DNA of 63,969 nt, the filler included, from Candidatus Rokuibacteriota bacterium (GTDB lineage Bacteria; JAUVQV01; DATDCY01), in NCBI GenBank assembly GCA_031406795.1. It is 6 parts of 6 records of this genome, joined end to end, with 100 filler letters (N's around TTAATTAATTAA, not from the genome) between each part and the next. Parts side by side here need not be neighbours in the genome. Positions count along the whole stretch, not along the records: positions 10,369 to 14,475 come from JANOHV010000017.1; positions 14,576 to 16,735 come from JANOHV010000028.1; positions 16,836 to 45,383 come from JANOHV010000071.1; positions 45,484 to 61,740 come from JANOHV010000097.1; 2 more parts are not named here. One strand, written 5' to 3'. Made by a program: the position numbers and the translations under genes. Below are positions 12,268 through 56,295 of the stretch, one piece after another. The notes beneath the pieces are model-generated. The model saw nothing but the letters and a program-made list of their open reading frames with translations. It was not told where the DNA came from and made no database searches. The first letter of the stretch is position 1. Every line of letters begins with the position of its first letter.

Positions 12268-12391
12268 GCAGACTGCTCAAAAGGGTCCAGGTGCAAGGCG
12301 CCCGACGGCCGGCGAATGAGGCGGCCTGGTGGCCGCCGCAGTGAGTCGAATGGAGGGCAACGCCGCAGATGGGCCGTTTTCAGCAGCATGC
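12268..12391 (+). repeat. Dispersed ~125-nt long-hairpin element, copy 1
   Basis: GCAGACTGCTCAAAAGGGTCCAGGTGCAAGGCG...CAACGCCGCAGATGGGCCGTTTTCAGCAGCATGC; imperfect terminal inverted repeats. Confidence 0.92.
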
Positions 12392-12979
12392 TTAATCGGG
12401 GTCGGTGCCGCGTTCGCTCAGCAGCAGTTCGCCGTGGACGAAACCGCGCGCGAACGCGCCGAGGTTCAACTCGTCCGTGCCCTTGGGGACCGTGGAGCGG
12501 ATCGCCGACTCCATCGCCGCGCGCCCGACCACGCCGGTGACGGCGACGAGCAGCCCGAGCATCACGATGTTCGCGACCATCTTGCGGCCGGCTTCGACGG
12601 CCAGTTCGGTCGCGGGGATGCCAAAGACCCGCAGCGACGGGTAGTTCCCCGGCAGCCGGACGAGATCCTCCTCGATCAGCAGGGTGCCTCCCGCGCGCAG
12701 CGAGGGGCCGTACTTCGTGAATCCCTCCTGGCTCATGCAGAGGATCGCGTCGGCGGCGTCGATATACGGGTACAGAATCGGCGCATCGGAGATCACGACC
12801 TGGACCAGCGTGGCGCCGCCGCGGGCCTCCGGGCCGTAGGCCTGGATCAGTGTCGCCTCGCGGCCGCCGTAGATCGACGCGGCCTTGCCGAGGATGTGTC
12901 CGGCGAGCACGACGCCCTGGCCGCCGAACCCGGTCAGAATGACGCGGGATGTTTCGCGCACCCCGCCTTGCCCGCTCAC
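12392..12979 (-). CDS. korC: 2-oxoacid:ferredoxin oxidoreductase gamma subunit
   Basis: GFGGQGVVLAG, YGPEARGG, ANIVMLG. Confidence 0.9.
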   Translation of the reverse strand: MSGQGGVRETSRVILTGFGGQGVVLAGHILGKAASIYGGREATLIQAYGPEARGGATLVQVVISDAPILYPYIDAADAILCMSQEGFTKYGPSLRAGGTLLIEEDLVRLPGNYPSLRVFGIPATELAVEAGRKMVANIVMLGLLVAVTGVVGRAAMESAIRSTVPKGTDELNLGAFARGFVHGELLLSERGTDPD

Positions 12980-13818
12980 GCCCGCTCCCCCTGCGGCGCG
13001 ATGCCGAGCCGAGCGGCGAGCGTCGGGCGCGGGCGGTCGATGAAGCGGCCGACGATCAGCTGGTTGTCGAGATCGATGTCGACATCCTGCGTGTTCGCGC
13101 CGTGGCGGATCACGCTCTTCTCGTAAAAAAGCTTCATCATGTCGAGCCCCTCGCCCATCTTGTTGCGCCGGCCGTAGGCGGTGGGGCAGGGGGCGATGAC
13201 TTCGATGAACCGGAAGCCGGGCTTGCCGAGCGCCTCGAGGATCGTCGCCTGCAGCGGTCGCGCGTGCAGCGTCGTCCAGCGCGCGACGAAGACCGCACCG
13301 GCGGCGGCCGCGAGGTTCGGCAGATTGAACGGCGTCTCCAGGTTCCCCGCGGGCGTCGTCGTGCTCTTGTGGCCGGTGGGCGTCGTCGGCCCGGCCTGCC
13401 CGCCGGTCATGCCGTAGGTGAAATTGTTGACGCAGACGACGAGCAGATCGACGTTGCGGCGCGCGGCGTGGATGAAGTGATTGCCGCCGATCGCGAAGAG
13501 GTCACCGTCGCCGGAGACGACCACGACCTTCAGCCGCGGGTTGGCCAGGTGCAGCCCGGTCGCGTAGGGCAGCGAGCGGCCGTGCGTCGTGTGGAACGAG
13601 TCGAGCCGGACGTACCCCGGCACGCGCGCGGTGCAGCCGATGCCGGAGACGAACGCCAGGTCGTTTTCGGGGAGCGCCGACTCGACGATGGCGTCGAGCA
13701 TCGCCTTGAGCACGGTGCCGATCCCGCAGCCCGGGCACCAGATGTGCGGCATGCGGTCGGCCCGCAGCAGATGGTCGACCGGATTGGGGGGCGCGGCCGC
13801 TTTGCCGGGCGTCGTCAC
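12976..13818 (-). CDS. korB: 2-oxoacid:ferredoxin oxidoreductase beta subunit
   Basis: WCPGCGIG, SGIGC, GDGD TPP-binding motif, YGMTGGQ. Confidence 0.93.
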   Translation of the reverse strand: MTTPGKAAAPPNPVDHLLRADRMPHIWCPGCGIGTVLKAMLDAIVESALPENDLAFVSGIGCTARVPGYVRLDSFHTTHGRSLPYATGLHLANPRLKVVVVSGDGDLFAIGGNHFIHAARRNVDLLVVCVNNFTYGMTGGQAGPTTPTGHKSTTTPAGNLETPFNLPNLAAAAGAVFVARWTTLHARPLQATILEALGKPGFRFIEVIAPCPTAYGRRNKMGEGLDMMKLFYEKSVIRHGANTQDVDIDLDNQLIVGRFIDRPRPTLAARLGIAPQGERA

Positions 13819-14475
13819 GGCTTGCTCCTGCCGGAGGGGTCGCGAACGGCGGCCAGTTCGCTCTTGACGACGTCCAGGATCATCGCCGGCGTGTGGATTC
13901 TGCCGCCGGCGTATGGAATGAGGACGGTTTTCGCCCGCCCGGCCGCGCAGCGCTCGACCTCGAGGGACATCTGGCCGTAGTTGATCTCGGGGACGACCAG
14001 CAGCGGGACGCGTGCGGCCAGCTCGCGCACCACCTTCTCCGGGAAGGGCCAGGCGGTGATCAGCTTGAGCAGGCCGACGCGGATCCCCTCGCGGCGCGCC
14101 AGCGCCATCGCCTCGAGCGCGGGCCGCACGGTGATGCCGTACGTGACGATCACCGCCTCGGCATCCTGCGTGTCGCGCTCCTCGACCATGACGATCTCGT
14201 CGACGTTGTGCCGGATCTTGTTGACGAGACGCTCGACCATCTCGCGCTGGATCTCCGGCGTGAGCACCGGGTAGCCGCGCCGGTCGTGCGTGAGTCCGGT
14301 GACGTGCACGCGATAGCCGGTGCCGGCCGTCGGCATCTCCGGGATTCCGTCGGCGCCGGGCTGATAGAGCAGGAACTCCCCCGGCGGCTTCGTCGGCGCG
14401 CGCCGCGGCGTGACGGCGATCTGCTCGACGGCCGGGATGACGACCTTCTCGGACATGTGGCCGATCACCTCGTCG
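13815..14475 (-). CDS. korA: 2-oxoacid:ferredoxin oxidoreductase alpha subunit, 5' truncated
   Basis: HVTGLTHDRRGYP, WPFP, VPEINYGQ. Confidence 0.9.
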
Positions 14476-14575
14476 NNNNNNNNNNNNNNNNNNNNNNNNN
14501 NNNNNNNNNNNNNNNNNNNTTAATTAATTAANNNNNNNNNNNNNNNNNNNNNNNNNNNNNNNNNNNNNNNNNNNN
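14476..14575. other. Artificial contig linker
   Basis: N run containing TTAATTAATTAA. Confidence 0.99.
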
Positions 14576-15181
14576 AGTCACCGCGCCGGCGACCTGCCAG
14601 AAAATGTTCTTGGCCAGCGCGCCGCCGGCCAGCGTCACCCGCGTAGCGTTGGCCTGGTTCAGCGTTCCCGCCACCTGGAAGATCCAGACATCATCCGGGC
14701 CGCCCGAAAGCGTGACATCCGTGGAAATCAACAGAGCCGTAGTCCATTTGTACAGGCCGGGGGCGAGAGTCAGCCCGCCAATCTCACCGGCGCCCAGTTC
14801 CGTGAAATCGGGTGATACCCGTCCCGCGGCGTCGTCGTACGCGAATCCCATGTCACCCACAGCCGAGGTCAGGAAGGAGGCGGCAGTCACCGCGCAGGGG
14901 AGAGGCCCAGCCGCATCGACGGTGTAGATATTCCCCGACACTTCCCCGCACGTCAGAAGGAGAGCCGCACCGGTGATGGGGCTCGTTCCAACATCCCCGA
15001 CAATGGCGGATCGATACACGTCGGTGATTCCGCTACTGCTCAGAATCGCGAAAGTGTCGGCCGTGCCAAGGCTGACCGGCATCGGACCGATCCCGGCCTG
15101 AGCGCTTGCGCCCCCGGTCATGACAACGCCGAGCAGTGCTGCCAGAAACAACTTTTTTGAACTTCCTTTGCATGTGTTCAT
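14576..15181 (-). CDS. Secreted DUF3494 ice-binding-like protein, 3' truncated
   Basis: Signal peptide; LGTADTFAILSSSGIT, AYDDAAGR, GEIGGLTLAPGLYKW, DVWIFQVAG, GGALAKNIFWQV. Confidence 0.92.
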
Positions 15182-15265
15182 TCCGTGCCCCCTCCCTGAG
15201 GACTGTCAAATCTGAAGAGCAATTAGTGGCAAACCCGATTGCCTGCCACTGTCGGGGAAGGTATT

Positions 15266-15281
15266 AGCAACTACCGTGCCA
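15266..15281 (-). promoter_or_regulatory. Sigma54 -24/-12 promoter for the DUF3494 gene
   Basis: Minus strand reads TGGCACGGTAGTTGCT, matching TGGCAC-N5-TTGC, about 85 nt upstream of the ATG. Confidence 0.85.
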
Positions 15282-15362
15282 CAGAAGATCTTCGGTGGCT
15301 ACGATAGTATGTCTATGATTATGCAGGATAAAATGGCGATCGTGAAAATCGGGCGGAGAGTA

Positions 15363-15402
15363 AACCGTCAATAACAGGCGTCGTATTTAACAGAACCGTC
15401 AA
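15363..15402. promoter_or_regulatory. Candidate upstream activator sites
   Basis: AACCGTCAA occurs twice, 31 bp apart, 80-120 bp upstream of the sigma54 promoter. Confidence 0.4.
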
Positions 15403-15436
15403 ATATGAAGACCCCGCAGTGAGAACTCGTGAACAG

Positions 15437-15560
15437 GCAGGCTGATCAAAAAGGTCCAGGTGCAAGGCGCGCGAAAACCCGGCGAATGAGGCGTACTGGT
15501 GTACGCCGCAGTGAGTCGGGGTGAGCGCAACGCCGCAGATGGGCCTTTTTCAGCGGCCTG
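15437..15560 (+). repeat. Long-hairpin element, copy 2
   Basis: GCAGGCTGATCAAAAAGGTCCAGGTGCAAGGCG...GAGGCGTACTGGTGTACGCCGCA...CAACGCCGCAGATGGGCCTTTTTCAGCGGCCTG. Confidence 0.92.
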
Positions 15561-16735
15561 TTAGCGGCGGATGCCGTATTTCCGCATTCGTCCGCGAAGA
15601 GTGCTGGGATTGAGACCAAGGATCATCGCTGCTCCAGTTTCCCCCTCGATTCGCCAGCCGGTCTTCCGGAGCACCTGGAGGATGTAGTCGTGTTCCCGCT
15701 CGCCAAGGGCCTTGCCGTCTTCCTGCGTTTCCTGTTCCCCTGCCTTTCGGGGATTCTCGAACCGGTCCAAGACCTCCAGCGCCGTCCCCTGGCTCGTGAT
15801 CACCGCGCGCTCGATGATACTCTCCAGCTCGCGCACGTTGCCGGGCCAATGGTAGTGCTGGAGAATGTTCAGCGTCTCTTTCGACACGGTCTCGATCTTC
15901 TTCCCGGTTTTCTTGTTGAATTTGGCCACAAAGTAATCGACAAGAAGCGGGATGTCCTCCTTGCGCTGCCGGAGCGGCGGGATCGTAATGGGGAAAACAT
16001 TCAGCCGGTAAAAAAGGTCTTCCCGGAACCTGCCCCTCCGGATCTCTTCCTCCAGATTCCGGTTGGTGGCTGCGATGATCCGCACATCGACCTTGATGGT
16101 TTTGGGGCCGCCCAGCCGCTCGAACTCGCCGTCCTGGATGACCCTGAGCAGCTTGGACTGAAGGTCCAGCGGCAGATCGCCGATTTCGTCGAGAAACAGG
16201 GTGCTGCTGTCGGCAAGTTCGAAGCGCCCCAGCTGCCGTTCATGAGAGCCGGTGAACGCGCCCTTTTCCCGCCCGAAGAGCTCGCTTTCGATGAGATTCG
16301 CCGGGAGTGCCGAGCAGTTGACGGTGATCAGTGGCCGGTCCTTGCGGCTGCTCCTGCTGTGAATGGAGCGCGCCACTACCCCCTTCCCCGTGCCGGTCTC
16401 GCCATGGAGCAGAACGGTCGCGTCCTGGGGCGCCACCTGTTCGACCTTGAAGAACACCGACTCGAGTGCCTTGCTTCGCCCGATGATCTCGCCGAAGTTG
16501 AACTCCCGGTCGATATCTTCGTGCAGGTAGATGTTCTCAGCCTGGAACCGGTCCTTCAACTCCTTGTTTTCCGCATACGCGATCCGGAGTGATTCTTCGG
16601 CCTCTTTGCGATCCTCTATTTCCTGCAAGAGCTGCTCGTTCGCCCTGAGGAGTTCGCCCGTCCGTTCCTGCACCGTCTGTTCCAGCACCTTGTTGTAGTT
16701 CGCGATTTTCTTGTACAACAGCCGCACTTCCAGCA
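15561..16735 (-). CDS. Sigma54-dependent Fis-family activator (bEBP), 5' truncated
   Basis: GETGTGK, ESELFG, GAFTGS, LFLDEIG, FREDLFYRLNVFPI, WPGNVRELE, C-terminal HTH. Confidence 0.95.
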
Positions 16736-16835
16736 NNNNNNNNNNNNNNNNNNNNNNNNNNNNNNNNNNNNNNNNNNNNTTAATTAATTAANNNNNNNNN
16801 NNNNNNNNNNNNNNNNNNNNNNNNNNNNNNNNNNN
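16736..16835. other. Artificial contig linker
   Basis: N run containing TTAATTAATTAA. Confidence 0.99.
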
Positions 16836-17089
16836 AGCGCGACCAGGGTGGCGCCGGCGAAGAAGGTGCGACGCAGGAGCGAGGGCGCCCCGGCGAGCAA
16901 ACCGAAAACGCCGCCGGTATTGCGGCTGAAGGTCAGGTCGAAGAAGCCCGGGATGATGGTCAGCGGCGGCCTCCCCGGCAGGTTCTGGAGCACCCAGGCT
17001 TTCGTCGCCTGATCCAGGGCGAGCACCACGACGCAGATGGCCAGGGCCATCCCCCAGGCCACCCCCTGACGACGTTCCGTCTGTTCCAT
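16836..17089 (-). CDS. lspA: Lipoprotein signal peptidase II, 3' truncated
   Basis: LDQATK, IIPGFFDLTFSRNTGGVFG. Confidence 0.92.
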
Positions 17090-17107
17090 AGCGCAGTTTC
17101 GCCCGGC

Positions 17108-18293: not shown

Positions 18294-18344
18294 GGCGACG
18301 CCGTCCTTGACCGCGTGCCGCGGGACGCCGTATCATTCCACCCC

Positions 18345-20691: not shown

Positions 20692-20832
20692 CCCGACCCG
20701 CTGGGGAGGGCTTTTTTCGCCCCTGCGGCGTTGGTGCTCGCGTTGCTTGTGCGGCGCACACGAGTGCGCCTCCGCGCACGCTTCGCACCTGCCTTGCAGG
20801 AGCGAAAAAATCCGCTCCCGATCGGGCCGGGC
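20691..20832 (-). repeat. Long-hairpin element, divergent variant with different outer arms
   Basis: Minus strand keeps the core TGCAAGGC...GAGGCGCACTCGTGTGCGCCGCA...CAACGCCGCAG inside a different outer inverted repeat (GCCCG.CCCG...TTTTTTCGC). Confidence 0.8.
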
Positions 20833-22214: not shown

Positions 22215-22282
22215 TATCTCTCCCTAGTCTGTTCAGTGCCTCAGCTGGAATTCTAACAGTTTACCGGAAAACCCGTTGCGGG

Positions 22283-22408
22283 GCAGGCCGCTCAAAAGGG
22301 TCCAGGTGCAAGGCGGGCGAGCCCTGAGGAATGAGGCGTACAAGTCGTACGCCGCAGTGACGAAGGGCGAAGCCCAACGCCGCAGATGGGCCGTTTTCAG
22401 CGGCCTGC
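22283..22408 (+). repeat. Long-hairpin element, copy 3
   Basis: Ends GCAGGCCGCTCAAAA and TTTTCAGCGGCCTGC (14/15 inverted match); shared core. Confidence 0.93.
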
Positions 22409-23544
22409 TACCAGTCGGCATAGCGGGCGATGGAGGCGGCGGCACGCGCGGCCGCGCCCCCCGGTCCGAGAAGGGCGCTGACCTTGCCGCATTTTTCCCG
22501 GAGCCGCGCCGCGGCCGCGGGGTCGTCGAGGAGACGTTCGATCTCCGCCGCGATGGTTTCGGGGCGGCACTCGTACTGGAGCAATTCGAGCACCGCCGGC
22601 TCGCCGAGAAGCAGGTTCGGCAGGCTCGCCCAGCGGGCGCGGATCAGACGCTTCGCGATCGCGTGCGAGAGCGGGGAGACCCGGTAGACAACGACGAAAG
22701 GCGTGCCGATGAGCGCGGTCTCCAGCGTCGCCGTCCCCGACGCGACGACGGCGGCGTCGGCCGCGGCGAGGCAATCCCAGGCGCGCCCCTCGACGATGCG
22801 GGCGGCGATCGGTTCGGCGCTCAGCGGCGAGAGCAGCGGCCGCACCGCGGGGGAGGCCGCGGGCACGACGAACTGCGGGCGCGGCCTGCGGCGGGAGAGC
22901 AGCGCGCCGGCCCCCAGCAGCGAGGGCAGCAGTGCGCGGACCTCGCCGCGGCGGCTGCCGGGGAGCAGCGCGACTACCGGACGCGCAGCGTCGAGCTGCA
23001 GATCGGCGCGCAGCGCCTGCTGCGGCGCCGAAGGGCGGACGAGGTCGACGAGCGGGTGTCCGACGTATTCGGTGCGAATACCGGCCTCTTTGAAGAACGC
23101 CTCCTCGAAGGGCAGGATGCACAGCGCGAGGTCGACCGTCCGACGGATGTCCCGCAGCCGGCCGCGGCGCCAGGCCCAGACTTGCGGCGTGATGAAGTAG
23201 ACGACGCGCAAGCCGAGTTCGTGCGCCGCCCGGGCCAGACGCAGGTTGAAATCCGGCGCGTCGACGAGCACCACGACGGCGGGCCGACGCCGCGCCAGTT
23301 CGCCGCGGAGCCGGCGCAACAGGGCCAGGATCGAACCGAGCTTCGGGAGGACCTCCGTGATGCCCACGAGCGAGAGCTGTTCGATTCCGGCGACCTGCTG
23401 CTGGCCGGCGGCCGCGAGGCACGGTCCGCCGACTCCCCACGCCGCGAGATCGGGTCGCATTCGCCTCAGTTCCATCAGCAGCGCCGCGGCGTGCTGGTCA
23501 CCCGAAACCTCGCCGGCCGAGATGAAGATCTCAGGCCCGGGCAT
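22408..23544 (-). CDS. lpxB: Lipid-A-disaccharide synthase
   Basis: SAGEVSGD, VDAPDFN, PQVWAWR, LLPGSRRGE, SGTATLE. Confidence 0.95.
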   Translation of the reverse strand: MPGPEIFISAGEVSGDQHAAALLMELRRMRPDLAAWGVGGPCLAAAGQQQVAGIEQLSLVGITEVLPKLGSILALLRRLRGELARRRPAVVVLVDAPDFNLRLARAAHELGLRVVYFITPQVWAWRRGRLRDIRRTVDLALCILPFEEAFFKEAGIRTEYVGHPLVDLVRPSAPQQALRADLQLDAARPVVALLPGSRRGEVRALLPSLLGAGALLSRRRPRPQFVVPAASPAVRPLLSPLSAEPIAARIVEGRAWDCLAAADAAVVASGTATLETALIGTPFVVVYRVSPLSHAIAKRLIRARWASLPNLLLGEPAVLELLQYECRPETIAAEIERLLDDPAAAARLREKCGKVSALLGPGGAAARAAASIARYADW

Positions 23545-24376
23545 CGGCCTCGGTGCAGCCCCACAGCGCCACGCGGTTGGCGTCCAGCAGCGCCAGGGTC
23601 TCCTCGCGCTGCACGAACAGCGTGCGCCCGGCTTCGATCGCGAGCACGGCAGCCTGTGCGGCGACCACGGAGCGCGCAGTCTCGAGTCCGACGACCGGCA
23701 CGTCGAAGCGGAAATCCTGGTCGGGCTTGGCGGTCTTGACGACGACGACACCCGGGCCGGCGACCTCGCCGCCGCGTCGAATCGTCAGGTCCGTCCCTTC
23801 GAGCGCCTCGACCGCGACCGGCGCCAGGTGCCTGACGACTACGGTCTGGCCGATGTCGAGGCGGCCGATCTCGCGCGCCAGGCGGAAACCGAAGGCGATG
23901 TCGGCGCGCTCGTCCCGGTCCGGCTCGCGATGCGAGAGTCTTCCCGGTCTTGCGAAGAGCGCGCCGAGCCAGCGGCCGGCCTCCTCGACGACGATACCTT
24001 CGCGGGCCAGTTCGTCGACCACGGCGCGCAGGATGGTGTCGTCGCGGCGGTCCGACAGGCTCATCCAGATTCTCGCGGCGCGCAGGTCCGGGCGGAAGTC
24101 GCTGAACGTCCGCGCCTTGTGGACCTTGCCGAGCAGCAGCGCCGAGGCGACACCGGCGTCTCTGAAAGCGCGGATGAGCTTATCGACCTGGCCGAGGCGC
24201 AGGTCGTGGTAGACGTCCACCGCGTCGGCGAGGGCGAGGCGGGTCGGTTCGTCGAAACCGACGGCCACCACTCGGTGGCCGTCCGCGCGCAGCGTGCGCG
24301 CGGCGATCACGGGCAGTTCGCCGCGGCCGGCGATCAGGCCGACGGCGCGCCCGCTCGCGGGCTCAGGGCTGCTCAC
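23531..24376 (-). CDS. lpxI: UDP-2,3-diacylglucosamine diphosphatase LpxI
   Basis: GLIAGRGELP, DIGQTVVV, AVEALEGTD, QDFRFDVPVVG. Confidence 0.93.
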   Translation of the reverse strand: MSSPEPASGRAVGLIAGRGELPVIAARTLRADGHRVVAVGFDEPTRLALADAVDVYHDLRLGQVDKLIRAFRDAGVASALLLGKVHKARTFSDFRPDLRAARIWMSLSDRRDDTILRAVVDELAREGIVVEEAGRWLGALFARPGRLSHREPDRDERADIAFGFRLAREIGRLDIGQTVVVRHLAPVAVEALEGTDLTIRRGGEVAGPGVVVVKTAKPDQDFRFDVPVVGLETARSVVAAQAAVLAIEAGRTLFVQREETLALLDANRVALWGCTEADARA

Positions 24377-28332: not shown

Positions 28333-28397
28333 GAAGTCACCTCCCGAAAATCGCCAATGTTGCTACGATACACCCGCAGCGGGGAGGATGACCAGCC

Positions 28398-28482
28398 GCA
28401 GCAGATGGGCCTGAAAGGAACGGAGAGGCAGCTCGGAATGGTCCAGGCGCCTGACGCCGCAGATGGGCCCTTTTCAGCGGCC
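28398..28482 (+). repeat. Long-hairpin element, internally deleted copy
   Basis: GGCAGCTC...GGTCCAGGCGC joined to ACGCCGCAGATGGGCCCTTTTCAGCGGCC; extra GCAGATGGGCC fragment upstream. Confidence 0.75.
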
Positions 28483-28490
28483 GTAACGAT

Positions 28491-30773
28491 CTAGAAGAAG
28501 TTGCCGATCATGAAGGCCCAGTCCGACTTCGGCTCCCCCTCCTTGCGGTCCAGGATATAGCCCCACTCGAGGCGGAAGGGACCGATCGGGGACATCCAGC
28601 GGATGCCGAAGCCGGCGCTTTCGCGGAAATCGCGGATCGAGATCGCATCGCCCTGGTCCCAGGCGTTGCCCGCGTCCACGAACAGCACGAGATTGAACCC
28701 CTGGGCCGGGGCGATCGGCAGGATGATCTCGGTGTTGAAGTACAGTTGCTGGAAACCGCCCTTCGGGTCGCCGTTCTCATCCTTCGGGCCGACCGAACGC
28801 GAAGGGAAGCCGCGCATCGACAGGATGCCGCCGAGAAAAAACTTCTCGTAGATCGGTGGCGTGCGCCCGTCGAAGCCCTGGATATTGCCGTACTCGCCGT
28901 GGACCATGCCCACAAGTTTCGCGGGCAGCGGCACGTAGGAACTCTGCTCCAGCTCGTACTTCGTGAAATAGTTGTCCCCCCCGAGCAGCCCGCCGGCGTA
29001 CTCGCCGGAGACCGAGGTGCGGTTGCCGCGCGTCGGATTCATGAAGTTGTCGCGCGTGTCGCGCACCAGCGAGAGCCGCAGGCTGTTGGTCGACCGCTGG
29101 CCGGACTGTTCCTTGATGTAGTTCGACGCGGTCTCCTCGTTGATGTCGCTCACGGTCACCGTCTCGTGCTTGACGCTGACGAACGAGCGGATGTACTCGC
29201 CGAGGCTGCGCCCGAAGGTCAGGCGACCGCCGATCGACTTGCGGTCGTACTCGTCGTACTCGCGCATCGTGTCGTAGATCGAGAACCCGGCGGACCAGGC
29301 GCTGTCGAAGAGCGACGGCTCGGTGAAACTGAGCGAGTAATTCGTCCGCACCGGCGATTTCTCGAAGGTCAGCGCCAGGGAATGCCCGCGCCCGAACAGG
29401 TTGCTCTCCGAGACGCGCAGTTGGCCGGTGAGCTTGTCCTCCGAGCTGTAGCCGATGCCGAACGTGATGGCGCCCGTGAGCCGCTCCTTGACCTCGATGT
29501 CGATGTCGATCACGTCGTCGCCCCGCGGTCGGGGCACGATTTCGACGGCGTCGAAGAACCCGAGGTTCGTCACCCGCTGACGGCTGCGGCGCAGGGCTTC
29601 GCTGTTGAAGATCTCCCCTTCGCTGAAGGTCAGCTCCCGGCGCACGATCTTGTCGCGGGTCGAGACGTTGCCGCTGACCGAGATCCTGCCGAAGCGGGCC
29701 TCCGGACCGCGCTCGACGAGAAAAGTCACGTCGATGGTCCGTTTCTCCGGGTCGAGTTTCGTGGCGTAATCCAGCTTCACGAAGGCGAAGCCGCGGCTGG
29801 CGTAGCGCTGATTCATGGCGTACAGGCCCTGGGCGAACGCGGAGCGGCGGAAGATCTCGCCCTCCTGGAGGCCGACGAAACGCCTGATCTCCTCGAGCGA
29901 CAGGAAATCGTCGCCCTCCTGCGTCATGACGCCGAGGCGATACTGCAGGCCCTCGGTCACCGGGATCGCGACCCGCACGACCCTGCCGGTGTCGTCGACG
30001 GCGACCTCCGGCTCGCCGACGCGCACCTCGAGATAGCCGCGGTCCTGATAGTAGCTGACGATCCGTTGGCGGTCCTCCTGGAGCACATCCTGCTGGAGCT
30101 TGCCGGATCCCGAAATCCAGGAAAAGATCGTCCAGGGCTCGGTCTTCATTTCGCCGAGCAGCTTGCTCACGGGGATGGACTTGACGCCGCTCAGCGAAAT
30201 CTCGACGAGGCGATATTTCCGGCCCTCCTCGACGACCGCCTTGATCCGCACCCGGCCTTCGCCGGCCGGCTCGACCGCCGTGCGCACCAGGGCCTGGTAG
30301 TACCCTTTTTCGCGGTAGAGCGCCCGCATCCGCTCAACCGCCGCGGCGACCGCGATCGGGCTGTACGGCACCGTGAGCGGCAGCGCGGCCTTCTCGCGCA
30401 GGTCTTCGGTCTTGATTTCCTTGTTGCCCTCGATCGCAAGAACGCTCACCAGCGGGCGCTCGACGACCCGGAACGTCACGCGCATCCCGCCTTCGAAGGC
30501 TTCGGCGTCGACCTTGATGTCCTCGAACGACCCGAGCTCGAACAGCGAGCGCACGTCCCGGGAGACCTGTTCGGCGTCGTAAGGCGCTCCCTCGCGGCTG
30601 CCGATGCGCGCGCGCACCGTCGCCTGCTCGACCATCCGGGTGCCGGCGATGACGATCTCGCGAATCTCGGGCGCCGGCGCCGACGCATCCTCGGCGCCCG
30701 CCGGCGCGGCCGCCAGCAGCGCGAGGATCGAAGCGGCGAGCAGCGACCGGATGCTGCGGCTACGCAGCCGCAT
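28491..30773 (-). CDS. bamA: Outer membrane protein assembly factor BamA
   Basis: POTRA repeats, NLFGRG, MRGF, GIRWMSPIGPFRLEWG, terminal F; ATG overlaps the clpC stop. Confidence 0.96.
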   Translation of the reverse strand: MRLRSRSIRSLLAASILALLAAAPAGAEDASAPAPEIREIVIAGTRMVEQATVRARIGSREGAPYDAEQVSRDVRSLFELGSFEDIKVDAEAFEGGMRVTFRVVERPLVSVLAIEGNKEIKTEDLREKAALPLTVPYSPIAVAAAVERMRALYREKGYYQALVRTAVEPAGEGRVRIKAVVEEGRKYRLVEISLSGVKSIPVSKLLGEMKTEPWTIFSWISGSGKLQQDVLQEDRQRIVSYYQDRGYLEVRVGEPEVAVDDTGRVVRVAIPVTEGLQYRLGVMTQEGDDFLSLEEIRRFVGLQEGEIFRRSAFAQGLYAMNQRYASRGFAFVKLDYATKLDPEKRTIDVTFLVERGPEARFGRISVSGNVSTRDKIVRRELTFSEGEIFNSEALRRSRQRVTNLGFFDAVEIVPRPRGDDVIDIDIEVKERLTGAITFGIGYSSEDKLTGQLRVSESNLFGRGHSLALTFEKSPVRTNYSLSFTEPSLFDSAWSAGFSIYDTMREYDEYDRKSIGGRLTFGRSLGEYIRSFVSVKHETVTVSDINEETASNYIKEQSGQRSTNSLRLSLVRDTRDNFMNPTRGNRTSVSGEYAGGLLGGDNYFTKYELEQSSYVPLPAKLVGMVHGEYGNIQGFDGRTPPIYEKFFLGGILSMRGFPSRSVGPKDENGDPKGGFQQLYFNTEIILPIAPAQGFNLVLFVDAGNAWDQGDAISIRDFRESAGFGIRWMSPIGPFRLEWGYILDRKEGEPKSDWAFMIGNFF

Positions 30774-33196
30774 CAGACCCCCGCCTTCACATGGAAGACG
30801 ATGCGGCCGTCTTCCAGCGCGGCGAGGAGCTCTTCGGTTCCCCGGAAGTCGTGGCGCAAAAGTTCCATGGCCAGCGGGTCCTCGATGTGCGTCTGGATGG
30901 CGCGACGCAGGTGCCGGGCCCCGTAGGCGGGGTCGAACCCCTTCTCGATGAGCCACTCGGTCGCCGCGGGCTCCAGGCGCAGCGCGAAGCCCTTCTCGGC
31001 CAGCTGGACGTTGAGCTGGCCGATCTGCAATTCGACGATCTGGCGGATGTGCTCCCGCGTGAGCGTGTGGAAGATCACGATGTCGTCGATCCGGTTGATG
31101 AACTCGGGGTTGAAGGTCTTCTTGACCTCGTCCATGACCTGGGAGCGCGCCTTGACGTTCTCGCAGCCCTCCGGTCCGCAGGCGAAGCCGAGACCGGCGC
31201 CGCCCCGGTGCAGGTCGCGGGTGCCGAGGTTCGAGGTGATGATCAGCACCACGTTGCGGAACGAAACGGTGCGACCGTAGCTGTCGGTGAGCTGCCCGCC
31301 GTCGAGCACCTGTAGCAAAATATTAAAAACGTCCGGGTGCGCCTTCTCGATCTCGTCGAAGAGCACGATGCTGTAGGGGCGCCGGCGCACCTGTTCGGTG
31401 AGCTGCCCGCCCTCCTCGAAACCGACGTACCCCGGCGGGGCCCCGGTCAGCCGCGAGACGTTGAACTTCTCCATGTACTCCGACATGTCGAGGCGGATCA
31501 GTGCGCGCTCGTCGTTGAAGAGCACCCCGGCGAGCGCCCGCGCCAGCTCGGTCTTGCCGACGCCGGTGGGGCCGAGGAAGATGAACGAGCCGATCGGTTT
31601 GTTCTGCGGTTTGAGGCCGACGCGCGAGCGGCGGATCGCCCGCACGACCGCGGTCACCGCCTCGTCCTGGCCGACGATCCGTTTGTGCAGCTCCTCCTCC
31701 ATGCGCAGCAGCCGCTCGGTCTCGCGCTCCTCGATGCGGACCGTCGGGATGCCGGTCATCTTGGAGACGATGTAGGCGATGTCGTCCTCGCCGAGGCGCG
31801 GCACGATCTCGTCCTGCTTCTTCTCCCAGGCGGCGCGGGCGGTTTCCAGCTCGATCTTGAGACGGCCCTCGGTGTCGCGCAGGCGCGCCGCCTTCTCGTA
31901 GTCCTGCAGCCGGATCGCGGTGACCTTGTCGGCGGTGACCCCCTCGATTTCCAGCTCGCGGCGGCGCAGCTCGGGCGGCAGGGTGATCTCCTTGAGCCGC
32001 GCGCGCGAGCCGGCCTCGTCGATGACGTCGATGGCCTTGTCGGGCAGGTGGCGGTCCGTGATGTAGCGGTCCGCGAGGCGCGCCGCGGCGAGGATGGCCT
32101 CGTCCGAGATGCTGATGTGGTGGTGCGCCTCGTAGCGCGATTTGAGCCCCTGGATGATCTGCACCGTCTGGTCGACCGTCGGCGGCTGCACCAGAACCGT
32201 CTGGAAGCGTCGCTCGAGGGCGCCGTCCTTCTCGATGTGCTTGCGGTACTCGTTGAGGGTCGTCGCGCCGATGCACTGCAGCTCGCCGCGCGAGAGCGCC
32301 GGCTTGAGCATCGAGGAGGCGTCGATCGAGCCCTCGGCCGCGCCGGCGCCGACCAGCGTGTGGATCTCGTCGATGAAGATCACGACGTTCGGGGTCTCGG
32401 TGATCTCCTTCATGATCGTCTTGAGCCGCTCCTCGAACTGGCCGCGGTACTTGGTGCCGGCGACCAGGGACCCGAGGTCGAGCTGCACGATGCGCTTGCC
32501 GAGCAGCGTCTTGGGCACCTGCCCGGAGACGATGCGCTGGGCGAGGCCTTCGGCGATCGCGGTCTTGCCGACCCCCGGCTCGCCGATGAGCACCGGGTTG
32601 TTCTTCGTGCGGCGCGAGAGGATCTGGATGACGCGCTCGATCTCGTCGGCCCGGCCGATCACCGGGTCGAGCTTGGACTCCCTCGCGAGCTTGGTCAGAT
32701 CGCGGGAGAACTCGTTGAGCAGCGGCGTCTCCTTCTTCTCCTCCTTCGCCTTGGGGGAGGAGATCTTGAGCAGCGAGATCGTCTCCTTGCGCAGCATCGT
32801 CAGCGAGAGGCCGAAACTCTTGAGCACCTGGGCGGCGATGCCCGAGTCCTCCTTGACCAGGCCGAGCAGCAGGTGCTCGGTGCCGATGTAGTTCTGGCCG
32901 AGCAGACGCGCCTCCTCGACGGAGAGTTCGAGCACCTTCTTCGCCTGGGGCGAAAAGGGGATTTCGCCGAGCGTCAGCACATTCTCCGTGGGCGGCATCC
33001 GCGCCACGAGTTCGGCCTCGAGCTGCTTTTGCGAGAACTCCAGCGTCTTGAGCACCGCGATGGCGGTCCCGGTCCCCTCCCGGACGATGCCGAGCAGCAG
33101 ATGCTCGGTGCCGAGGTATTCGTGCTGATATTTTTCGGCCTCGCCCCGCGCGAGGATGATCACCCGTCGGGCGCGTTCGGTGAAACGCTCAAACAT
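30773..33196 (-). CDS. clpC: ATP-dependent Clp protease ATPase ClpC
   Basis: [13 protein letters not shown], two AAA modules ([16 protein letters not shown]), UVR-like linker. Confidence 0.95.
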
Positions 33197-45383: not shown

Positions 45384-45483
45384 NNNNNNNNNNNNNNNNN
45401 NNNNNNNNNNNNNNNNNNNNNNNNNNNTTAATTAATTAANNNNNNNNNNNNNNNNNNNNNNNNNNNNNNNNNNNNNNNNNNNN
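45384..45483. other. Artificial contig linker
   Basis: N run containing TTAATTAATTAA. Confidence 0.99.
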
Positions 45484-45490: not shown

Positions 45491-45589
45491 CCCGGGAGCG
45501 CGACCGTGGCTCGCGGTCTCGTAACTCGCCCTTCGGGCTCAAACAACGAGCCCGCGTCCCTTCGGGACCGCCCCGGTCACGCTCCCGGG
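45491..45589 (+). repeat. Branched palindromic element with two cUUCGg-capped hairpins
   Basis: Outer CCCGGGAGCGCGACCG / CGGTCACGCTCCCGGG; inner GCCCTTCGGGC and GTCCCTTCGGGAC. Confidence 0.65.
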
Positions 45590-45690
45590 CTTCACGGCGG
45601 CTCCGCGCATCTTCCCTGCGGGCGAACCCCAGCCCGCCTCGCAGTGACAGGTCACCGGCACCCCCACCGTTTGAGCAAAGGTGGAAGGCA

Positions 45691-46787: not shown

Positions 46788-48644
<1,857 letters not shown>

Positions 48645-52289: not shown

Positions 52290-53017
52290 TGCGACGCATT
52301 CTGCTGGGCGTGAACATCGACCACGTCGCGACGCTGCGTCAGGCGCGGCGCGGTCGCGAGCCCGAGCCGCTCACCGCGGCGGCGCTCGCCGAAATCGGCG
52401 GCGCGGACCAGATCACCGTGCACCTGCGCGAGGACCGCCGGCATATCCAGGACCGGGATCTGGAACTGCTGCGGCGCACGGTGGCGACCTGGATCAACCT
52501 GGAGATGGCCGCGGTCCCGGAGATGGTGCGCGTCGCCCAGCGGCTGCGGCCGGAGGTGGCGACGCTGGTTCCGGAGAAGCGCCAGGAGATCACGACGGAG
52601 GGCGGGCTGGATGCCGCCGGCCAGGTGCGTTCGCTTGCGAAAGTCACGACGACGTTGAAGCGCGCCGGGATCCGGGTCAGTCTCTTCATCGACCCGGCGG
52701 CCTCGCAGATTCTCGCCAGCCGCGCGATCGGCGCGGACGCGGTTGAATTCAACACGGGGCAGTATGCCGAGGCGCGCACGCGGGCCGCGGCGCGGTCTGA
52801 ACTCGAGAAGCTGCGGGTGGCGTCCAGCCTGGCCGCCGAGCAGGGCCTGGCGGTCTTTGCCGGCCACGGCTTGAATTACCACAACATCCTCCCGGTCCGG
52901 GCGATCCCGGAACTCGAGGAGGTCAACATCGGCCACAGTATCGTTTCCCGCGCCCTGTTCGTCGGGCTGGAGCGCGCGGTGCGGGACATGGTGGAATTGC
53001 TGAACCGCCCGCAGTAA
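52286..53017 (+). CDS. pdxJ: Pyridoxine 5'-phosphate synthase
   Basis: [42 protein letters not shown]. Confidence 0.97.
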
Positions 53018-53091
53018 CGGGACCACGAAGCCCGCACGAGAACAGAAGTTTATCTTGGATTTTACCGGCAGCAACGAGGGAGGGCACGACG

Positions 53092-53757
53092 ATGCGTGAC
53101 GCGAACGGCAGTGAAACGGTCGGCTACCGCGAGGGCAAGATACCCGAGGCGACGGTCCAGCGACTCTCGATCTACCTGCGCTACGTGACGCAGCTGCACC
53201 GCGACGAGGTCAAGGTGGTCTCCTCCTACGCGCTCTCCAAGGGCTGCGGGGTCAAGGCCGCGCAGGTGCGCAAGGATTTCGCCTACTTTGGCGAACTCGG
53301 CGTGCGCGGCGTCGGCTACTATGTGAACGATCTCTACGCGGACCTGAAGAAGATCCTCGGACTCGAGCAGGTTTGGGAGGTCGCCCTGGTCGGCGCGGGA
53401 CACCTCGGGTCGGCGCTCACCGCGTATCGCGGCTTCGAGGAATACGGCTTCACGATTTCGGCGATCTTCGACCTGCATCCCGAGGCGCTTCCCGCGGCGC
53501 TGCGCGAACGCCACGAGGTCCACCCGATCGAGCAGCTGCGCGAGATCGTCACCCGGCAGAAGATCCGCATTGCGATCCTCGCCGTTCCGGCGGCCGCGGC
53601 ACAGGAGGCGGTCGACGCGCTGGTCGAGGCCGGGGTGAAGGCCATTTTGAACTTCGCACCGGCTCGGCTGGAGGGACCTCCCGGGGTCAAAATCCGCAAT
53701 GTCGACCTCGCCGTTGACCTCGGGGTGCTCTCCTTCTTCGTGACCGGGAAAAAATAA
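53092..53757 (+). CDS. rex: Redox-sensing transcriptional repressor Rex
   Basis: IPEATVQRLSIY, QVRKDFAYFGELG.RGVGY, VGAGHLG.AL, ILNFAP. Confidence 0.95.
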   Translation: MRDANGSETVGYREGKIPEATVQRLSIYLRYVTQLHRDEVKVVSSYALSKGCGVKAAQVRKDFAYFGELGVRGVGYYVNDLYADLKKILGLEQVWEVALVGAGHLGSALTAYRGFEEYGFTISAIFDLHPEALPAALRERHEVHPIEQLREIVTRQKIRIAILAVPAAAAQEAVDALVEAGVKAILNFAPARLEGPPGVKIRNVDLAVDLGVLSFFVTGKK

Positions 53758-53785
53758 TTCAAGTGCGGATGAAGAATGATATGCG

Positions 53786-53798
53786 TAAGATATTGATA
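53786..53798 (-). promoter_or_regulatory. IHF-consensus site in AT-rich region upstream of nrdD
   Basis: Minus strand TATCAATATCTTA fits WATCAANNNNTTR. Confidence 0.35.
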
Positions 53799-53929
53799 AC
53801 ATGAGAAAATATTATTATCACAAATAGGATTTCTGCGATTGGTGGAGCATTCTTGAGATTCTTGAAGCATTAGAGGCGAAACGGCGCTATTTCTGCGGGT
53901 GAGTTTTCTTCCGCCGTTTGGCGTTGTCC

Positions 53930-53976
53930 ACACAAGATATTGTGCCCTGTTCCTGATCTGCCCCAAGATGTGACCA
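53930..53976 (+). promoter_or_regulatory. NrdR box, with a weaker second box 31 bp downstream
   Basis: ACACAAGATATTGTG fits acaCwAtATaTwGtg; degenerate CCCCAAGATGTG at 53961; directly upstream of nrdD. Confidence 0.75.
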
Positions 53977-54031
53977 TTTCCTGCCTATCTCTGGGGAAGG
54001 GTTGCAGCTCGCAACGGGGGGGCCTGATCGC

Positions 54032-56146
54032 ATGGTACAGGGAAATCAGCCGGGCGTACTGGATGTGCCGAAGCCTGTCTCCGAGGAGACCACCGACAGC
54101 GCGCTGTTCGTGCGCACCTCCACGGAGGGGATGGTGGACTTCTCCCGCGAGCGCATCGTCGAGGCGCTGGTGCGCGAGACGCTTCTCGATCAGGAGACGG
54201 CCGGGCTGATCGGCCGCGAGGTCGAGGAGCAGATTCGCGCGTTTCACACCCGCACGCTGACGGCGCCGCTGATCCGCGAACTCGTCGACGCAAAACTGCT
54301 CGAACACGGGCTCGAAGGCGCGCGCCGGCTGCACACCCGGCTCGGCATGCCCCTCTATGACGTGGAGCAGTTGCTGCTCTCGCCGAACAAGGAGAACGCG
54401 AACATCCCCCATGGGCCCGAGGCGACGAACCTCACGCTCGCCGAGAACATCAAGAAGGAGTACGCGCTGCTGCGGGTCTTCTCGCCGGAGGTGGCCGACG
54501 CGCACACGCGCGGGGACCTGCACCTGCACGATCTGGGCTTCATCGATCGGCCCTACTGCTCGGGTCAGTCGCTGGAATACGTCAAGAAGTTCGGCCTGAA
54601 CTTCCCGCACGCGCTCTCGATCGCCAAGCCGGCGCGCCACCCCGAAGTGCTGCTCGCGCACATGGTGAAGTTCTCCGCGGCCCTGCAGAGCCACTTCGCG
54701 GGGGCCATCGGCTGGGACGCCGTGAACGTCTTCTTCGCGCCGTTTCTCGTCGGCCTCCCCGACCGCGAGGTGCGCCAGCTGGCGCAGATCCTGATCTACG
54801 AGTACTCGCAGCAGGCCGTCGCGCGCGGCGGCCAGGCGATCTTCTCGGATATCAACCTCTACTGGGAAACCCCGAAGCACTTCGAGACGGTGCCGGCCAT
54901 CGGTCCCGGCGGCGCGTACACCGGCAAGACCTACGCCGACTACCTGCCCGAGGCGCAGCGCTTCGTCAAGGCGCTCTTCGAGGTCTACCTCGGCGGTGAC
55001 GGCGCCGGGCGGCCCTTCTTCTTCCCGAAACCGCTGGTGCACATCACCGAGAAGCTCTTCCGGACCCCCGGGCACGAGGAGTTCCTCGACCTGATCTGCA
55101 CCGTAGCGGCCGAGAAGGGGAACACCTACTTCGTCTTCGACCGCGGCGAGACCGCCAAGATCTCCGAATGCTGCCGCCTCTCCTTCAAGCTCGAGAAGTC
55201 GGATCTCGAGGACGCGCGCGAGCCCTGGCGGATGCGCTACTCGGCGCTGCAGAACGTGACGCTGAACCTGCCGCGCGCGGCCTACGAGGCGTCCGGGGAT
55301 TCGACGAAGCTGTTCGCGCGCCTGATCGAGCTGATGGAGACCGCGACCCAGGCGCACGTCGAGAAACGCGCCTTTTTGACGCGGCTGCTCGAGATGGGCG
55401 AGCGCGGCCCGCTGGCGCTGCTGACGATGGCCCCCGACGGTCAGCCCTACCTGCGGATGCACCGGGCGACGCACCTGATCGGCATGGTCGGCCTCAATGA
55501 ACTGGTGCAGGCGCACACCGGCGAGGAGCTGCACGAGTCCGACGCGGCGCTGCGCTTCGGCCTGCGCGTCATCGCGCATCTGCAGCTGGTCGGCAAGAAG
55601 ATCGGCGAGCGCCGCGGGATGCGCTTCGTCCTCGAGCAGACGCCGGCGGAGTCGACCGCCTACCGCTTCGCGCGCCTCGACTTGCGCTACCACCCCGGTC
55701 CGGCCGGATACCACGTCAAGGGCGACGCGGCGCGCGGCGAGGTCTACTACACCAATTCGACGTACCTCAACGTCCAGGCGCCGATCAACCCGATCGAGCG
55801 CGTGAAACGCGAGGGGCTCTTTCACCCGCTGATCGAGGCCGGCTCGCTCTCGCACATCTGGCTCGGCGAGTCGCGTCCGTCGGCGGGGTCGCTCCGGGAC
55901 TTCGTCGTCAAGACATTCCGGCACACGCAGAACGACCAGATCGCGTTCTCGCCGGAGTTCACCAGCTGCAACGCCTGTCAGCGCACCTGCCGCGGCCTGC
56001 AGGCGCAGTGTCCCTCCTGCGGCTCGGAGGAGATCGACGGGATCACGCGGATCACGGGGTACTTCACGCGGGTCTCCTCGTGGAACAAGGGCAAGCGCGG
56101 GGAGCTGCACGATCGGTATCGCTCCTCGGGCCACTACCAGGCATAG
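54032..56146 (+). CDS. nrdD: Anaerobic (class III) ribonucleoside-triphosphate reductase
   Basis: ATP-cone-like N-terminus, GDLHLHDL, PYC, SECCRL, TPAES, CNAC..CPSC, TRITGY glycyl-radical loop. Confidence 0.95.
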   Translation: MVQGNQPGVLDVPKPVSEETTDSALFVRTSTEGMVDFSRERIVEALVRETLLDQETAGLIGREVEEQIRAFHTRTLTAPLIRELVDAKLLEHGLEGARRLHTRLGMPLYDVEQLLLSPNKENANIPHGPEATNLTLAENIKKEYALLRVFSPEVADAHTRGDLHLHDLGFIDRPYCSGQSLEYVKKFGLNFPHALSIAKPARHPEVLLAHMVKFSAALQSHFAGAIGWDAVNVFFAPFLVGLPDREVRQLAQILIYEYSQQAVARGGQAIFSDINLYWETPKHFETVPAIGPGGAYTGKTYADYLPEAQRFVKALFEVYLGGDGAGRPFFFPKPLVHITEKLFRTPGHEEFLDLICTVAAEKGNTYFVFDRGETAKISECCRLSFKLEKSDLEDAREPWRMRYSALQNVTLNLPRAAYEASGDSTKLFARLIELMETATQAHVEKRAFLTRLLEMGERGPLALLTMAPDGQPYLRMHRATHLIGMVGLNELVQAHTGEELHESDAALRFGLRVIAHLQLVGKKIGERRGMRFVLEQTPAESTAYRFARLDLRYHPGPAGYHVKGDAARGEVYYTNSTYLNVQAPINPIERVKREGLFHPLIEAGSLSHIWLGESRPSAGSLRDFVVKTFRHTQNDQIAFSPEFTSCNACQRTCRGLQAQCPSCGSEEIDGITRITGYFTRVSSWNKGKRGELHDRYRSSGHYQA

Positions 56147-56170
56147 AGAATTGTTTCAACCCACAGCAAG

Positions 56171-56295
56171 GCAGGTTGCTCAAAAGGGTCCAGGTGCAAG
56201 GCGCGCGACGATCCGGCGACTGAGGCGTACGACCGTACGCCGCAGGGAGCCGGGAGGAGCGCAACGCCGCAGATGGGCCCTTTTCAGCGGCCTGC
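56171..56295 (+). repeat. Long-hairpin element, copy 5
   Basis: GCAGGTTGCTCAAAAGGGTCCAGGTGCAAGGCG...GAGGCGTACGACCGTACGCCGCA...CAACGCCGCAGATGGGCCCTTTTCAGCGGCCTGC. Confidence 0.93.

Follow-up and report, generated by a model that had tools for sequence, protein, structure and literature searches.

A high-copy hairpin repeat at stop codons in the Candidatus Rokuibacteriota, a possible MITE-like family inserting at TA

Results

The conserved unit of a repeat family in an uncultured sediment bacterium of the Candidatus Rokuibacteriota is an imperfect hairpin of 127 nt, whose core is invariant and whose stems are variable and co-vary, and the 3' end of the element almost always enters a TA, usually that of the stop codon of a convergent gene. 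We give about even chances to the reading that we prefer, in which the family represents miniature non-coding foldback mobile DNA, a MITE in the sense of ERIC, Correia and RUP, that inserts at TA. A sequence-only reading of the same DNA had proposed a dispersed, structured and apparently mobile non-coding element, and our analysis supports this proposal.

Hairpin copies in the window

The window, i.e. the whole stretch of 63,969 nucleotides that was analysed, consists of several contigs joined by N spacers. The source draft genome (G000) comprises 4.1 Mb, and the other three species of the same genus are represented by G001, G002 and G003. Covariance model and word searches identified four full copies, two decayed copies and one diverged relative of the hairpin repeat in the window. 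The full copies, all at places already named in the sequence-only reading, occur on the plus strand at 12267..12392 (115.9 bits in the covariance model), 15436..15562 (126.4 bits), 22282..22409 (147.5 bits) and 56170..56296 (131.5 bits); because the window is composed of joined contigs, their common orientation carries no meaning. The 3' end of the copy at 12267..12392 enters the TTA at 12392-12394, where the minus-strand ORF 12392..12979 has its TAA stop. The copy at 15436..15562 ends in CCTGT followed by TA and overlaps the TTA at 15561-15563, with which the minus-strand ORF 15561..16727 stops, and the CTA at 22408-22410, at the 3' end of the copy at 22282..22409, is the TAG stop of the minus-strand ORF 22408..23751. 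The copy at 56170..56296 sits between the TAG stop (56144-56146) of the plus-strand ORF 54002..56146 and an ATG at 56320. A 5' module on the plus strand (22254..22281), in which TA (22254-22255) is followed by a degenerate version of the outer terminal repeat and then by a linker, precedes the copy at 22282..22409. A weak stretch resembling the outer repeat, with TA before it, lies at 15372-15391, ~60 nt upstream of the copy at 15436..15562.

Both partial copies reported previously proved to be real. The one at 28396..28490 (plus strand) is a decayed, rearranged remnant with an intact 3' arm at its end (28452-28488), and the CTA after it serves as stop for the minus-strand ORF 28491..30956; the one at 63573..63638 (minus strand) is truncated at its 5' side and spans model positions 57-119. 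The diverged relative at 20704..20819 (minus strand; 46.6 bits, E 1.5e-8) has the same inner core and different outer arms. The word GGTCCAGGTGCAAGGCG occurs exactly four times in the window, compared to 0.41 occurrences expected even when up to three mismatches are allowed, and CAACGCCGCAGATGGGCC is found four times exactly and twice with two mismatches (0.16 expected).

Structure and covariation of the hairpin

Each of the window copies folds into one long hairpin, with energies of -71 to -87 kcal/mol on the plus strand and z scores of -5 to -9. The 5' and 3' arms pair end to end and constitute terminal inverted repeats. The stems for which compensatory changes had been proposed were confirmed, with double changes at 14 of 44 pairs among 14 copies. 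In a set of 75 copies from G000, 93.4% of cells were paired and double changes occurred at 29 of the 44 pairs; slid controls were paired at 37-45% only, and none of 500 shuffles equalled the observed covariation, a comparison in which kinship of the sequences can exceed shuffles without any structure. An independent set of 29 copies from other genomes gave 94.7% paired cells, double changes at 21/44 pairs and again 0/500 shuffles. The claimed covariation is far above shuffled and slid controls. The core, which is the same across distant genomes, contains fixed purine-purine internal loops, an AA bulge and G:U pairs at set positions. Pairing is biased towards one strand, as G:U pairs outnumber A:C pairs by 275:22 in the G000 copies and by 91:10 in the copies of other genomes. 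This bias is compatible with the earlier idea that the element acts as a single strand.

Distribution and turnover

When all genomic copies were gathered, as the sequence-only reading had proposed, G000 yielded 152 non-overlapping matches on many contigs, 91 of them near-full. Model matches numbered 119 in G000, and its three congeners had 77 (G003), 43 and 40 (G001). The two other genomes of the phylum yielded five matches (sister genus) and none (G005). Five distant genomes, MAGs among them, held between 27 and at least 150 copies each. The carriers belong to uncultured sediment and soil lineages, and searches of plasmid and phage collections gave no match to the element.

The sister species G001 holds the element at 9 of 30 mapped G000 loci. 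At five of eight shared loci, the identity of the element (47-76%) was 8-39 points below the mean identity of the flanks on either side (84-92%), and some orthologous sites carry different sub-variants in the two species. Taken together, the sharing of loci and the differing sub-variants at shared sites suggest turnover, as judged from sequence comparison. Two window loci that were compared across species are filled in some and not in others. The copy at 22282..22409 has an orthologue in G001 (89% identical, 5' module and hairpin both present), and G002 contains neither module nor hairpin. The site of the copy at 56170..56296 is occupied by a full copy in G003, by a mini copy in G002 that was internally deleted in situ, by a GTAG-type REP in G001 and by nothing in G004. 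Further mini copies, head-to-tail arrays with a conserved junction and solo 3' arms are also present in the family.

Position relative to genes

Among the 87 full G000 copies, 85 are located outside called ORFs and 35 lie between convergent genes; 106 of 163 neighbouring gene ends are stops. Of the convergent neighbour ORFs, 47/58 have their end between -16 and +8 nt relative to the 3' end of the element, and half of the same-strand upstream ORFs (24/48) stop 9-75 nt short of the hairpin, in the expected place of the outer repeat. In 17/87 cases the neighbouring ORF extends 13-16 nt into the element before its stop, and in many other cases the stop is supplied by the last bases of the element. 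The modelled strand in G000 is mostly antisense to the gene that it abuts.

On the complete chromosome of G043 (origin ~1.8 Mb, terminus ~4.1 Mb, from GC skew with 20 samples), the modelled strand lies on the leading-strand template for 68 of the 100 3'-arm motifs listed. We rejected a replication-linked orientation of the element, since about two thirds of the coding DNA is on the leading strand and the modelled strand is mostly antisense to the abutted gene in G000, so that gene orientation alone can account for this bias.

Ends of the element and the outer repeat

A TA directly follows the 3' end in 34/39 copies of G041-G043 and in 38-44 of the 87 copies of G000, and is found at the 5' foot of the hairpin in 0/39 and 3/87 copies, respectively. 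In the fullest copies, which measure ~160 nt, the terminal 16-mer (GCAGGMTGCTGAAAAA) is repeated once more outside the hairpin, 10-15 nt upstream of it. Such units, edged by inverted 16-mers, represent a minority of copies, mostly outside G000, and roughly every second one is flanked by TA at both ends. Scored as present at 11 or more of 16 matches, the outer 16-mer was detected upstream of 13/39 copies in G041-G043 and 9/87 in G000 (control windows: 0/39 and 0/87) and was preceded by TA in 6/13 and 2/9 cases; the remaining 26/39 and 78/87 copies have no recognisable outer left repeat. No clean empty site was found in G001, G002 or G004, as flank identity to the relatives is only ~85% and the intergenic DNA is too diverged for a duplication to be read; the TA could, therefore, belong to the inverted repeat instead of being a target duplication.

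Search for a moving enzyme and for known families

The sequence-only reading had suggested a search for a transposase with matching ends. None of the 17 transposase loci examined (8 DDE_3, 6 DDE_Tnp_1, 3 Y1) has ends that match the element. Element-like ends were absent from the eight DDE_3 (IS630-type) loci of G000, G042 and G043, and the IS630-type elements of G000 and G043 have terminal repeats unrelated to the hairpin repeat; DDE_3 gave zero matches in G001 and G003 despite 40 and 77 copies of the repeat. The proposed resemblance of the ends to IS5/IS1182 did not hold: at the six DDE_Tnp_1 (PF01609) loci of G000-G003, no nhmmer match occurred at E<=10, and the one word found, with four mismatches, was at chance level. 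G001, with its 40 copies, has no PF01609 match. Y1_Tnp has a single match in G000 (C70:16213-16467), ~12 kb from the nearest copy on the contig, and none in G001-G003, which have 40-77 copies each. Two routes to an autonomous partner were set aside. Paired 5' and 3' cores in G000 gave one case of 967 nt, a vapBC cassette inserted in a copy, and the seven pairs of terminal-repeat-like words located 0.5-4 kb apart enclose ordinary genes.

The proposed comparison with Rfam gave no family, neither at gathering score across the whole window nor at E<=1 for five copies. The family is not described in the literature that we searched on Rokubacteria/Methylomirabil* repeats and on stop-codon MITEs. The four nucleotides before the hairpin read NNCG in about 55/87 copies (by eye; AACG, AGCG and CGCG commonest) and never GTAG; among the reverse-complemented heads at the hairpin foot, CGTT and CGCT are commonest and CGTC is rare. 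A separate GTAG-headed REP family is present in G000 and is the likelier partner of the lone Y1_Tnp gene.

Discussion

By analogy, the hairpin repeat is an undescribed family whose behaviour resembles that of ERIC, Correia, RUP and REPIN, small mobile non-coding elements of well-studied bacteria. Bacterial MITEs have been described as shorter than 200 bp, with terminal inverted repeats, TA at the termini and long stem-loop transcripts (PMC2229807). The hairpin repeat is non-coding, is 127 nt or, with the 5' module, ~160 nt long, has terminal inverted repeats and many dispersed copies, and is present in some relatives and absent from others. It had been considered unlike a MITE, a view that we abandoned, as size, foldback form, TA at the end, tandem and deleted derivatives and presence/absence are all traits of the MITEs described there (PMC2229807). 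It shares with the 127-bp ERIC/IRU elements a length of ~127 nt, the non-coding, intergenic nature, the single long imperfect hairpin, the terminal TA, many copies, size variants by insertion and deletion and the lack of a known transposase (PMC2229807). Unlike ERIC, it is G+C-rich, sits directly on stop codons and has an extra outer terminal repeat in a subset of copies; it occurs in uncultured sediment and soil lineages whereas ERIC occurs in enterobacteria, and the two seem to share no sequence likeness. RUP of Streptococcus pneumoniae and Correia/NEMIS of Neisseria are likewise small, bear terminal inverted repeats and have TA at their ends or target (PMC2229807; PMC3049150); Correia carries IHF and promoter motifs. 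RUP, moved by IS630-Spn1, best illustrates how a MITE can be linked to an IS630 transposase that targets TA (PMC2229807; PMC3049150). The terminal repeats of RUP match a resident IS, whereas none of the eight IS630-type loci examined here has ends matching the hairpin repeat. REPINs and REP-RAYT systems also form ~100-nt inverted-repeat hairpins in hundreds of extragenic copies, with clusters and tandem forms, and are thought to act as hairpins in ssDNA or mRNA (PMC3116915). The hairpin repeat differs from them in having neither a GTAG/CGTC head at its foot nor a flanking or co-occurring RAYT, and we dismissed a REPIN/RAYT link as the tests of head tetranucleotide and RAYT both failed. Identity with CGTC-tagged REPs was set aside on size, since the 8-9 bp stems published for these (PMC3733652) are far smaller than the element.

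According to the MITE reading, the ~160-nt form would be the complete transposable unit, integrating at TA and moved in trans by a TA-targeting DDE transposase, probably of the IS630/Tc1-mariner type. With termini G...C, TA+G and C+TA would read TAG from either side, so that insertion into the TA of a stop codon would leave the gene with a stop. In a genome of 67% G+C, TA is expected to be rare outside stop codons, which would explain the seat of the element on these codons. After insertion, the hairpin part would stay paired on one strand and the unpaired outer left repeat appears to decay, a distinction that is partly circular because copies were picked by their hairpin. Pairing may be kept up by selection on a transcript or on single-stranded DNA, or by palindrome-templated repair. 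The terminal stems co-vary instead of staying constant, which is odd for transposase-binding ends and counts against a DDE-mobilised MITE.

It is fairly unlikely, and compatible with the MITE reading, that the hairpin is kept mainly as a host 3' untranslated-region RNA element, for example as a two-way terminator, mRNA 3'-end protector or antisense or processing signal, with mobility explaining its origin only. The many stops among neighbouring gene ends, the copies between convergent genes, the covariation, the conserved internal loops, the G:U excess and the core shared by distant genomes would all fit such a role, as would the G+C-rich hairpin followed by 4-5 U on both strands and the orientation-dependent effect of ERIC on mRNA (PMC2229807). 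However, orientation relative to transcription is inconsistent (12 sense versus 19 antisense in co-directional gene pairs, p=0.28), compensating G:C pairs replace the U run in several copies, and a simple terminator scan flags no copies and reveals no terminator excess in 20 kb. That structure is not selected at all, and that a few master sub-families, template-switch (quasipalindrome) correction and gene conversion produced the pattern, we consider highly improbable. Discrete sub-variants, different ones at the same orthologous site in G000 and G001, many double changes common to groups of copies and the effect of kinship on shuffles speak for it. Nearly all copies nevertheless retain conserved mismatches, bulges and G:U pairs, which correction would have removed; G:U exceeds A:C at 17 positions with six opposite (p=0.03), and two tree-robust covariation measures were exceeded in 0/500 shuffles in both data sets.

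Strand-biased pairing would also be expected if the folded strand were the substrate of single-strand (HUH/Y1-type) mobilisation, as for REPIN/RAYT or IS200/IS605-derived palindromes, with oriented insertion beside TAG, TAA or TNAC (gene strand) and no duplication. We regard this as distinctly unlikely, although the asymmetric flanks (TA 3' in 34/39 copies, at the 5' foot in 0/39), the head-to-tail arrays with conserved junction, the solo 3' arms and the published REPIN model with hairpins in ssDNA or mRNA (PMC3116915) agree with it. The lone Y1_Tnp gene of G000 is distant from the nearest copy and more likely partners the GTAG-headed REP family, G001-G003 have no such gene, and the TA-flanked outer inverted 16-mers are unexpected. 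Moreover, by the rule known from IS608, activity would be expected of the strand complementary to the G:U-tolerant one, which further counts against this mode. As dozens of copies occur in three species of the genus that have no IS630, IS5 or Y1 partner, we also considered that the strand-specifically paired core is a working single-stranded RNA or DNA, bound by a putative protein and spread without a known transposase family. This is very unlikely; if true, it would represent either a novel mode of mobilisation or a 3'-end RNA module adopted by the host and shared across distant lineages.

Two features of the hairpin repeat go slightly beyond the ordinary, namely an end design (TA+G / C+TA) that would restore a TAG stop from either side, and strand-biased pairing conserved in a family without a visible transposase. 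Discovery of a partner enzyme or of an RNA role would make the repeat a means to study gene-end regulation and genome dynamics in this little-known lineage. For now, its value lies in annotation. At high copy number, it breaks assemblies of these uncultured bacteria and reshapes gene ends. The one RNA run found comprised short contigs of relatives only, over coding regions. Public DNA contigs terminate inside the repeats.

Copies and distribution of the hairpin element

A covariance model of the hairpin element, a foldback repeat of approximately 127 nt, identified four full copies in the window (12267-12392, 15436-15562, 22282-22409, and 56170-56296), where the sequence-only reading had placed them. 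The blocks described there as invariant occur in the window far more often than expected by chance, with four exact matches to the 17-mer (0.41 expected) and, for the 18-mer, four exact matches plus two with two mismatches (0.16 expected). Also present are a rearranged remnant whose 3' arm is intact (28396-28490) and, both on the minus strand, a 5'-truncated copy (63573-63638) and a diverged relative that shares the inner core (20704-20819). As the window consists of separate contigs chained by paired N runs (10269-10368, 14476-14575, 16736-16835, 45384-45483, and 61741-61840), the common plus orientation of its copies is uninformative, and neighbourhood and strand relations across the N runs are not real.

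In the source genome (G000; 4.1 Mb, 278 contigs), an iterated nhmmer profile yielded 152 non-overlapping matches, 91 of them near-full, and the covariance model yielded 119 at E<=1e-6. The spacing between the conserved 5' and 3' cores was 81-84 nt in 74 copies, 90-110 nt in 14 copies with apical inserts, and 21-25 nt in eight 'mini' copies. A mini copy occupies the site orthologous to that of window copy 56170 in the related species G002, indicating that minis form by in-place deletion. There were 140 3' cores and 118 5' cores, with about 35 solo 3' arms. Two outer end types occur, A (GGCAGGC...GCCTGCC) and B (GAGAGGC...GGCCGTMA); B-type copies have a conserved 5' linker and form head-to-tail arrays, often with a solo 3' arm ahead of the array.

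All four species of the genus carry the element (119, 77, 43, and 40 model matches), and a sister genus has few (5 matches). In G005, the one further genome examined from this phylum, the model had no match, and BLAST detected the element in none of 36 more distant sampled genomes. Five genomes located by means of a public pattern scan are nevertheless rich in it (at least 150, 142, 62-78, 63, and 27 copies); their submitters label them NC10/Methylomirabilota, Acidobacteria-like, Syntrophobacteria, and others. Among 30 distinct G000 loci with both flanks mapped in the congener G001 (1.2 Mb used), nine hold the element there and two more a solo arm or decayed trace. At five of eight shared loci, similarity between the two elements (47-76%) was 8-39 points below the average for the two flanks (84-92%), and some of these loci carry a different sub-variant or end type in the two genomes. 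These differences point to same-site re-insertion or conversion between copies.

Structural conservation

One long hairpin was predicted for each window copy, more stable on the plus than on the minus strand by 13-17 kcal/mol. The proposed covariation was borne out in a model-based alignment of 75 copies from G000: 29 of 44 pairs had changed on both sides (331 cells), and standard pairs made up 93.4% of cells, compared to 82.5% after shuffling and 37-45% with slid partners. None of 500 shuffles matched any of five covariation measures; this alignment was fitted to the model and its copies are related, and two tree-robust measures also exceeded the shuffles. In an independent set of 29 copies from at least eight other genomes, 94.7% of cells were paired and 21 of 44 pairs had changed on both sides, again unmatched in 500 shuffles. 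Pairing was strand-biased, with G:U to A:C at 275:22 in G000 (17 positions versus 6, p=0.03) and 91:10 in other genomes. Several imperfections of the core are fixed: an AA bulge, U:G pairs at particular positions, and a 2x2 purine loop, which itself covaries between GG/GA and GA/GG forms.

The element, initially regarded as a possible mobile structured RNA or ssDNA element, matched no Rfam family, whether the gathering score or E<=1 was applied, and nothing in plasmid and phage collections, and no published description of this repeat family was found in the literature. We concluded that it is a real, abundant, previously undescribed family of an ordinary kind.

Genomic position and element ends

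Gene context was determined for the 87 full G000 copies using a crude GC3-based ORF caller. Thirty-five copies lie between convergent genes, 19 between co-directional genes in antisense and 12 in sense, and 10 between divergent genes; for 11, no neighbour was called up to the contig end on one side. Two copies, also counted in these classes, are inside a called ORF. Of the 58 opposite-strand ORFs that neighbour the 3' end of the modelled strand, 47 have their stop codon at -16 to +8 nt relative to that end. This stop is either contributed by the terminal bases of the element (...CCTG-CTA, ...CCGT-CA/TA) or is a TGA lying 13 nt within it (17 cases, stop at -13 to -16 nt). The hairpin 5' foot was directly at a stop in one case only, and 24 of 48 same-strand upstream ORFs stopped 9-75 nt ahead of it.

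In 13 of the 39 copies examined in the distant genomes G041-G043 and in 9 of 87 from G000, the terminal 16-mer recurs 10-15 nt ahead of the hairpin as an exact inverse of the 3' end (control windows, 0/39 and 0/87). Thus, the hairpin is sometimes less than the whole element, which accounts for the asymmetry of its ends. TA precedes the outer 16-mer in 6 of the 13 and 2 of the 9 copies, respectively. Among the 39 copies of G041-G043, 34 have TA after the 3' end and none has it at the 5' foot of the hairpin. The clearest units have the form TA-G...C-TA, so that genes running into the element from either direction encounter a TAG stop codon. Window copy 22282 is arranged in this way (TA at 22254-22255 and 22409-22410), and its 5' module comes and goes together with the hairpin across G001 and G002.

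Candidate mechanism of mobility

Published bacterial MITEs are shorter than 200 bp, carry terminal inverted repeats with TA at their ends, and give rise to long stem-loop transcripts; ERIC (127 bp) and RUP, which is tied to IS630-Spn1, are examples (PMC2229807). The properties of the element largely agree with this picture; they do not fit REPIN/RAYT (PMC3116915) or GTAG/CGTC-tagged REPs (PMC3733652). The suggested IS5/IS1182-type ends found no counterpart, as none of six DDE_Tnp_1 (IS4/IS5) loci had matching ends, and the search for any transposase bounded by matching ends was likewise negative, with no match to the terminal 16-mer across 17 transposase loci. DDE_3 (IS630) genes of G000, G042, and G043 are associated with unrelated terminal repeats, and this domain is absent from G001 and G003. 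A single Y1_Tnp gene occurs in G000 (C70:16213-16467), away from any copy, and none in G001-G003. The search of G000 for long autonomous units yielded only stretches of ordinary genes and a copy interrupted by a vapBC cassette. On balance, we give roughly even odds to a TA-inserting MITE with a complete form of about 160 nt: the complete unit would insert at TA, and its foldback part would subsequently stay paired on one strand.

Neighbouring repeats and cassettes

IS630-family insertion sequences, which have terminal repeats of their own and bear no relation to the hairpin element, were observed in G000 (C264, the whole 1644-nt contig) and on the complete chromosome G043:C1. One type on the latter is probably active, judging by its nine identical copies (e.g. 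215944-216381).

Another repeat, about 210 nt long and unrelated to the hairpin element, is found at G000:C88:2076-2290 and at about 25 further sites; it starts with GCGAGGCGGCTGGGG and has complementary ends forming a closing stem. It had no Rfam match in the window scan. Contig C110 begins with a partial copy (window about 45509-45646), and in five cases a B-type hairpin copy is located 25-30 nt upstream of the repeat.

Classical GTAG-headed REPs, short palindromes following GTAG and often in tandem (G000:C225:29430-29555, C158:8010-8100, C224:1670-1760), are found inserted into or beside hairpin copies, and one replaces the element at the G001 orthologue (L202) of the window 56170 site. The Y1_Tnp gene of G000 (C70:16213-16467), the only one there, probably has this REP family as its partner.

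On the reverse strand of G000:C175 (~8264-9380), the 3' arm of a hairpin copy is interrupted by approximately 880 nt of inserted DNA encoding a PIN-domain toxin and an AbrB-like antitoxin. Because this insert is flanked by inverted repeats of 10 nt and by a short, directly repeated target sequence, it looks like a small mobile toxin-antitoxin cassette. In G041 (L303, L305, L307, L310, L312, and L314), a G+C-rich palindromic repeat (GCGCGCGCCAGCGCGCG...) lies directly ahead of many hairpin copies, which suggests that different repeat families have inserted into or next to one another.
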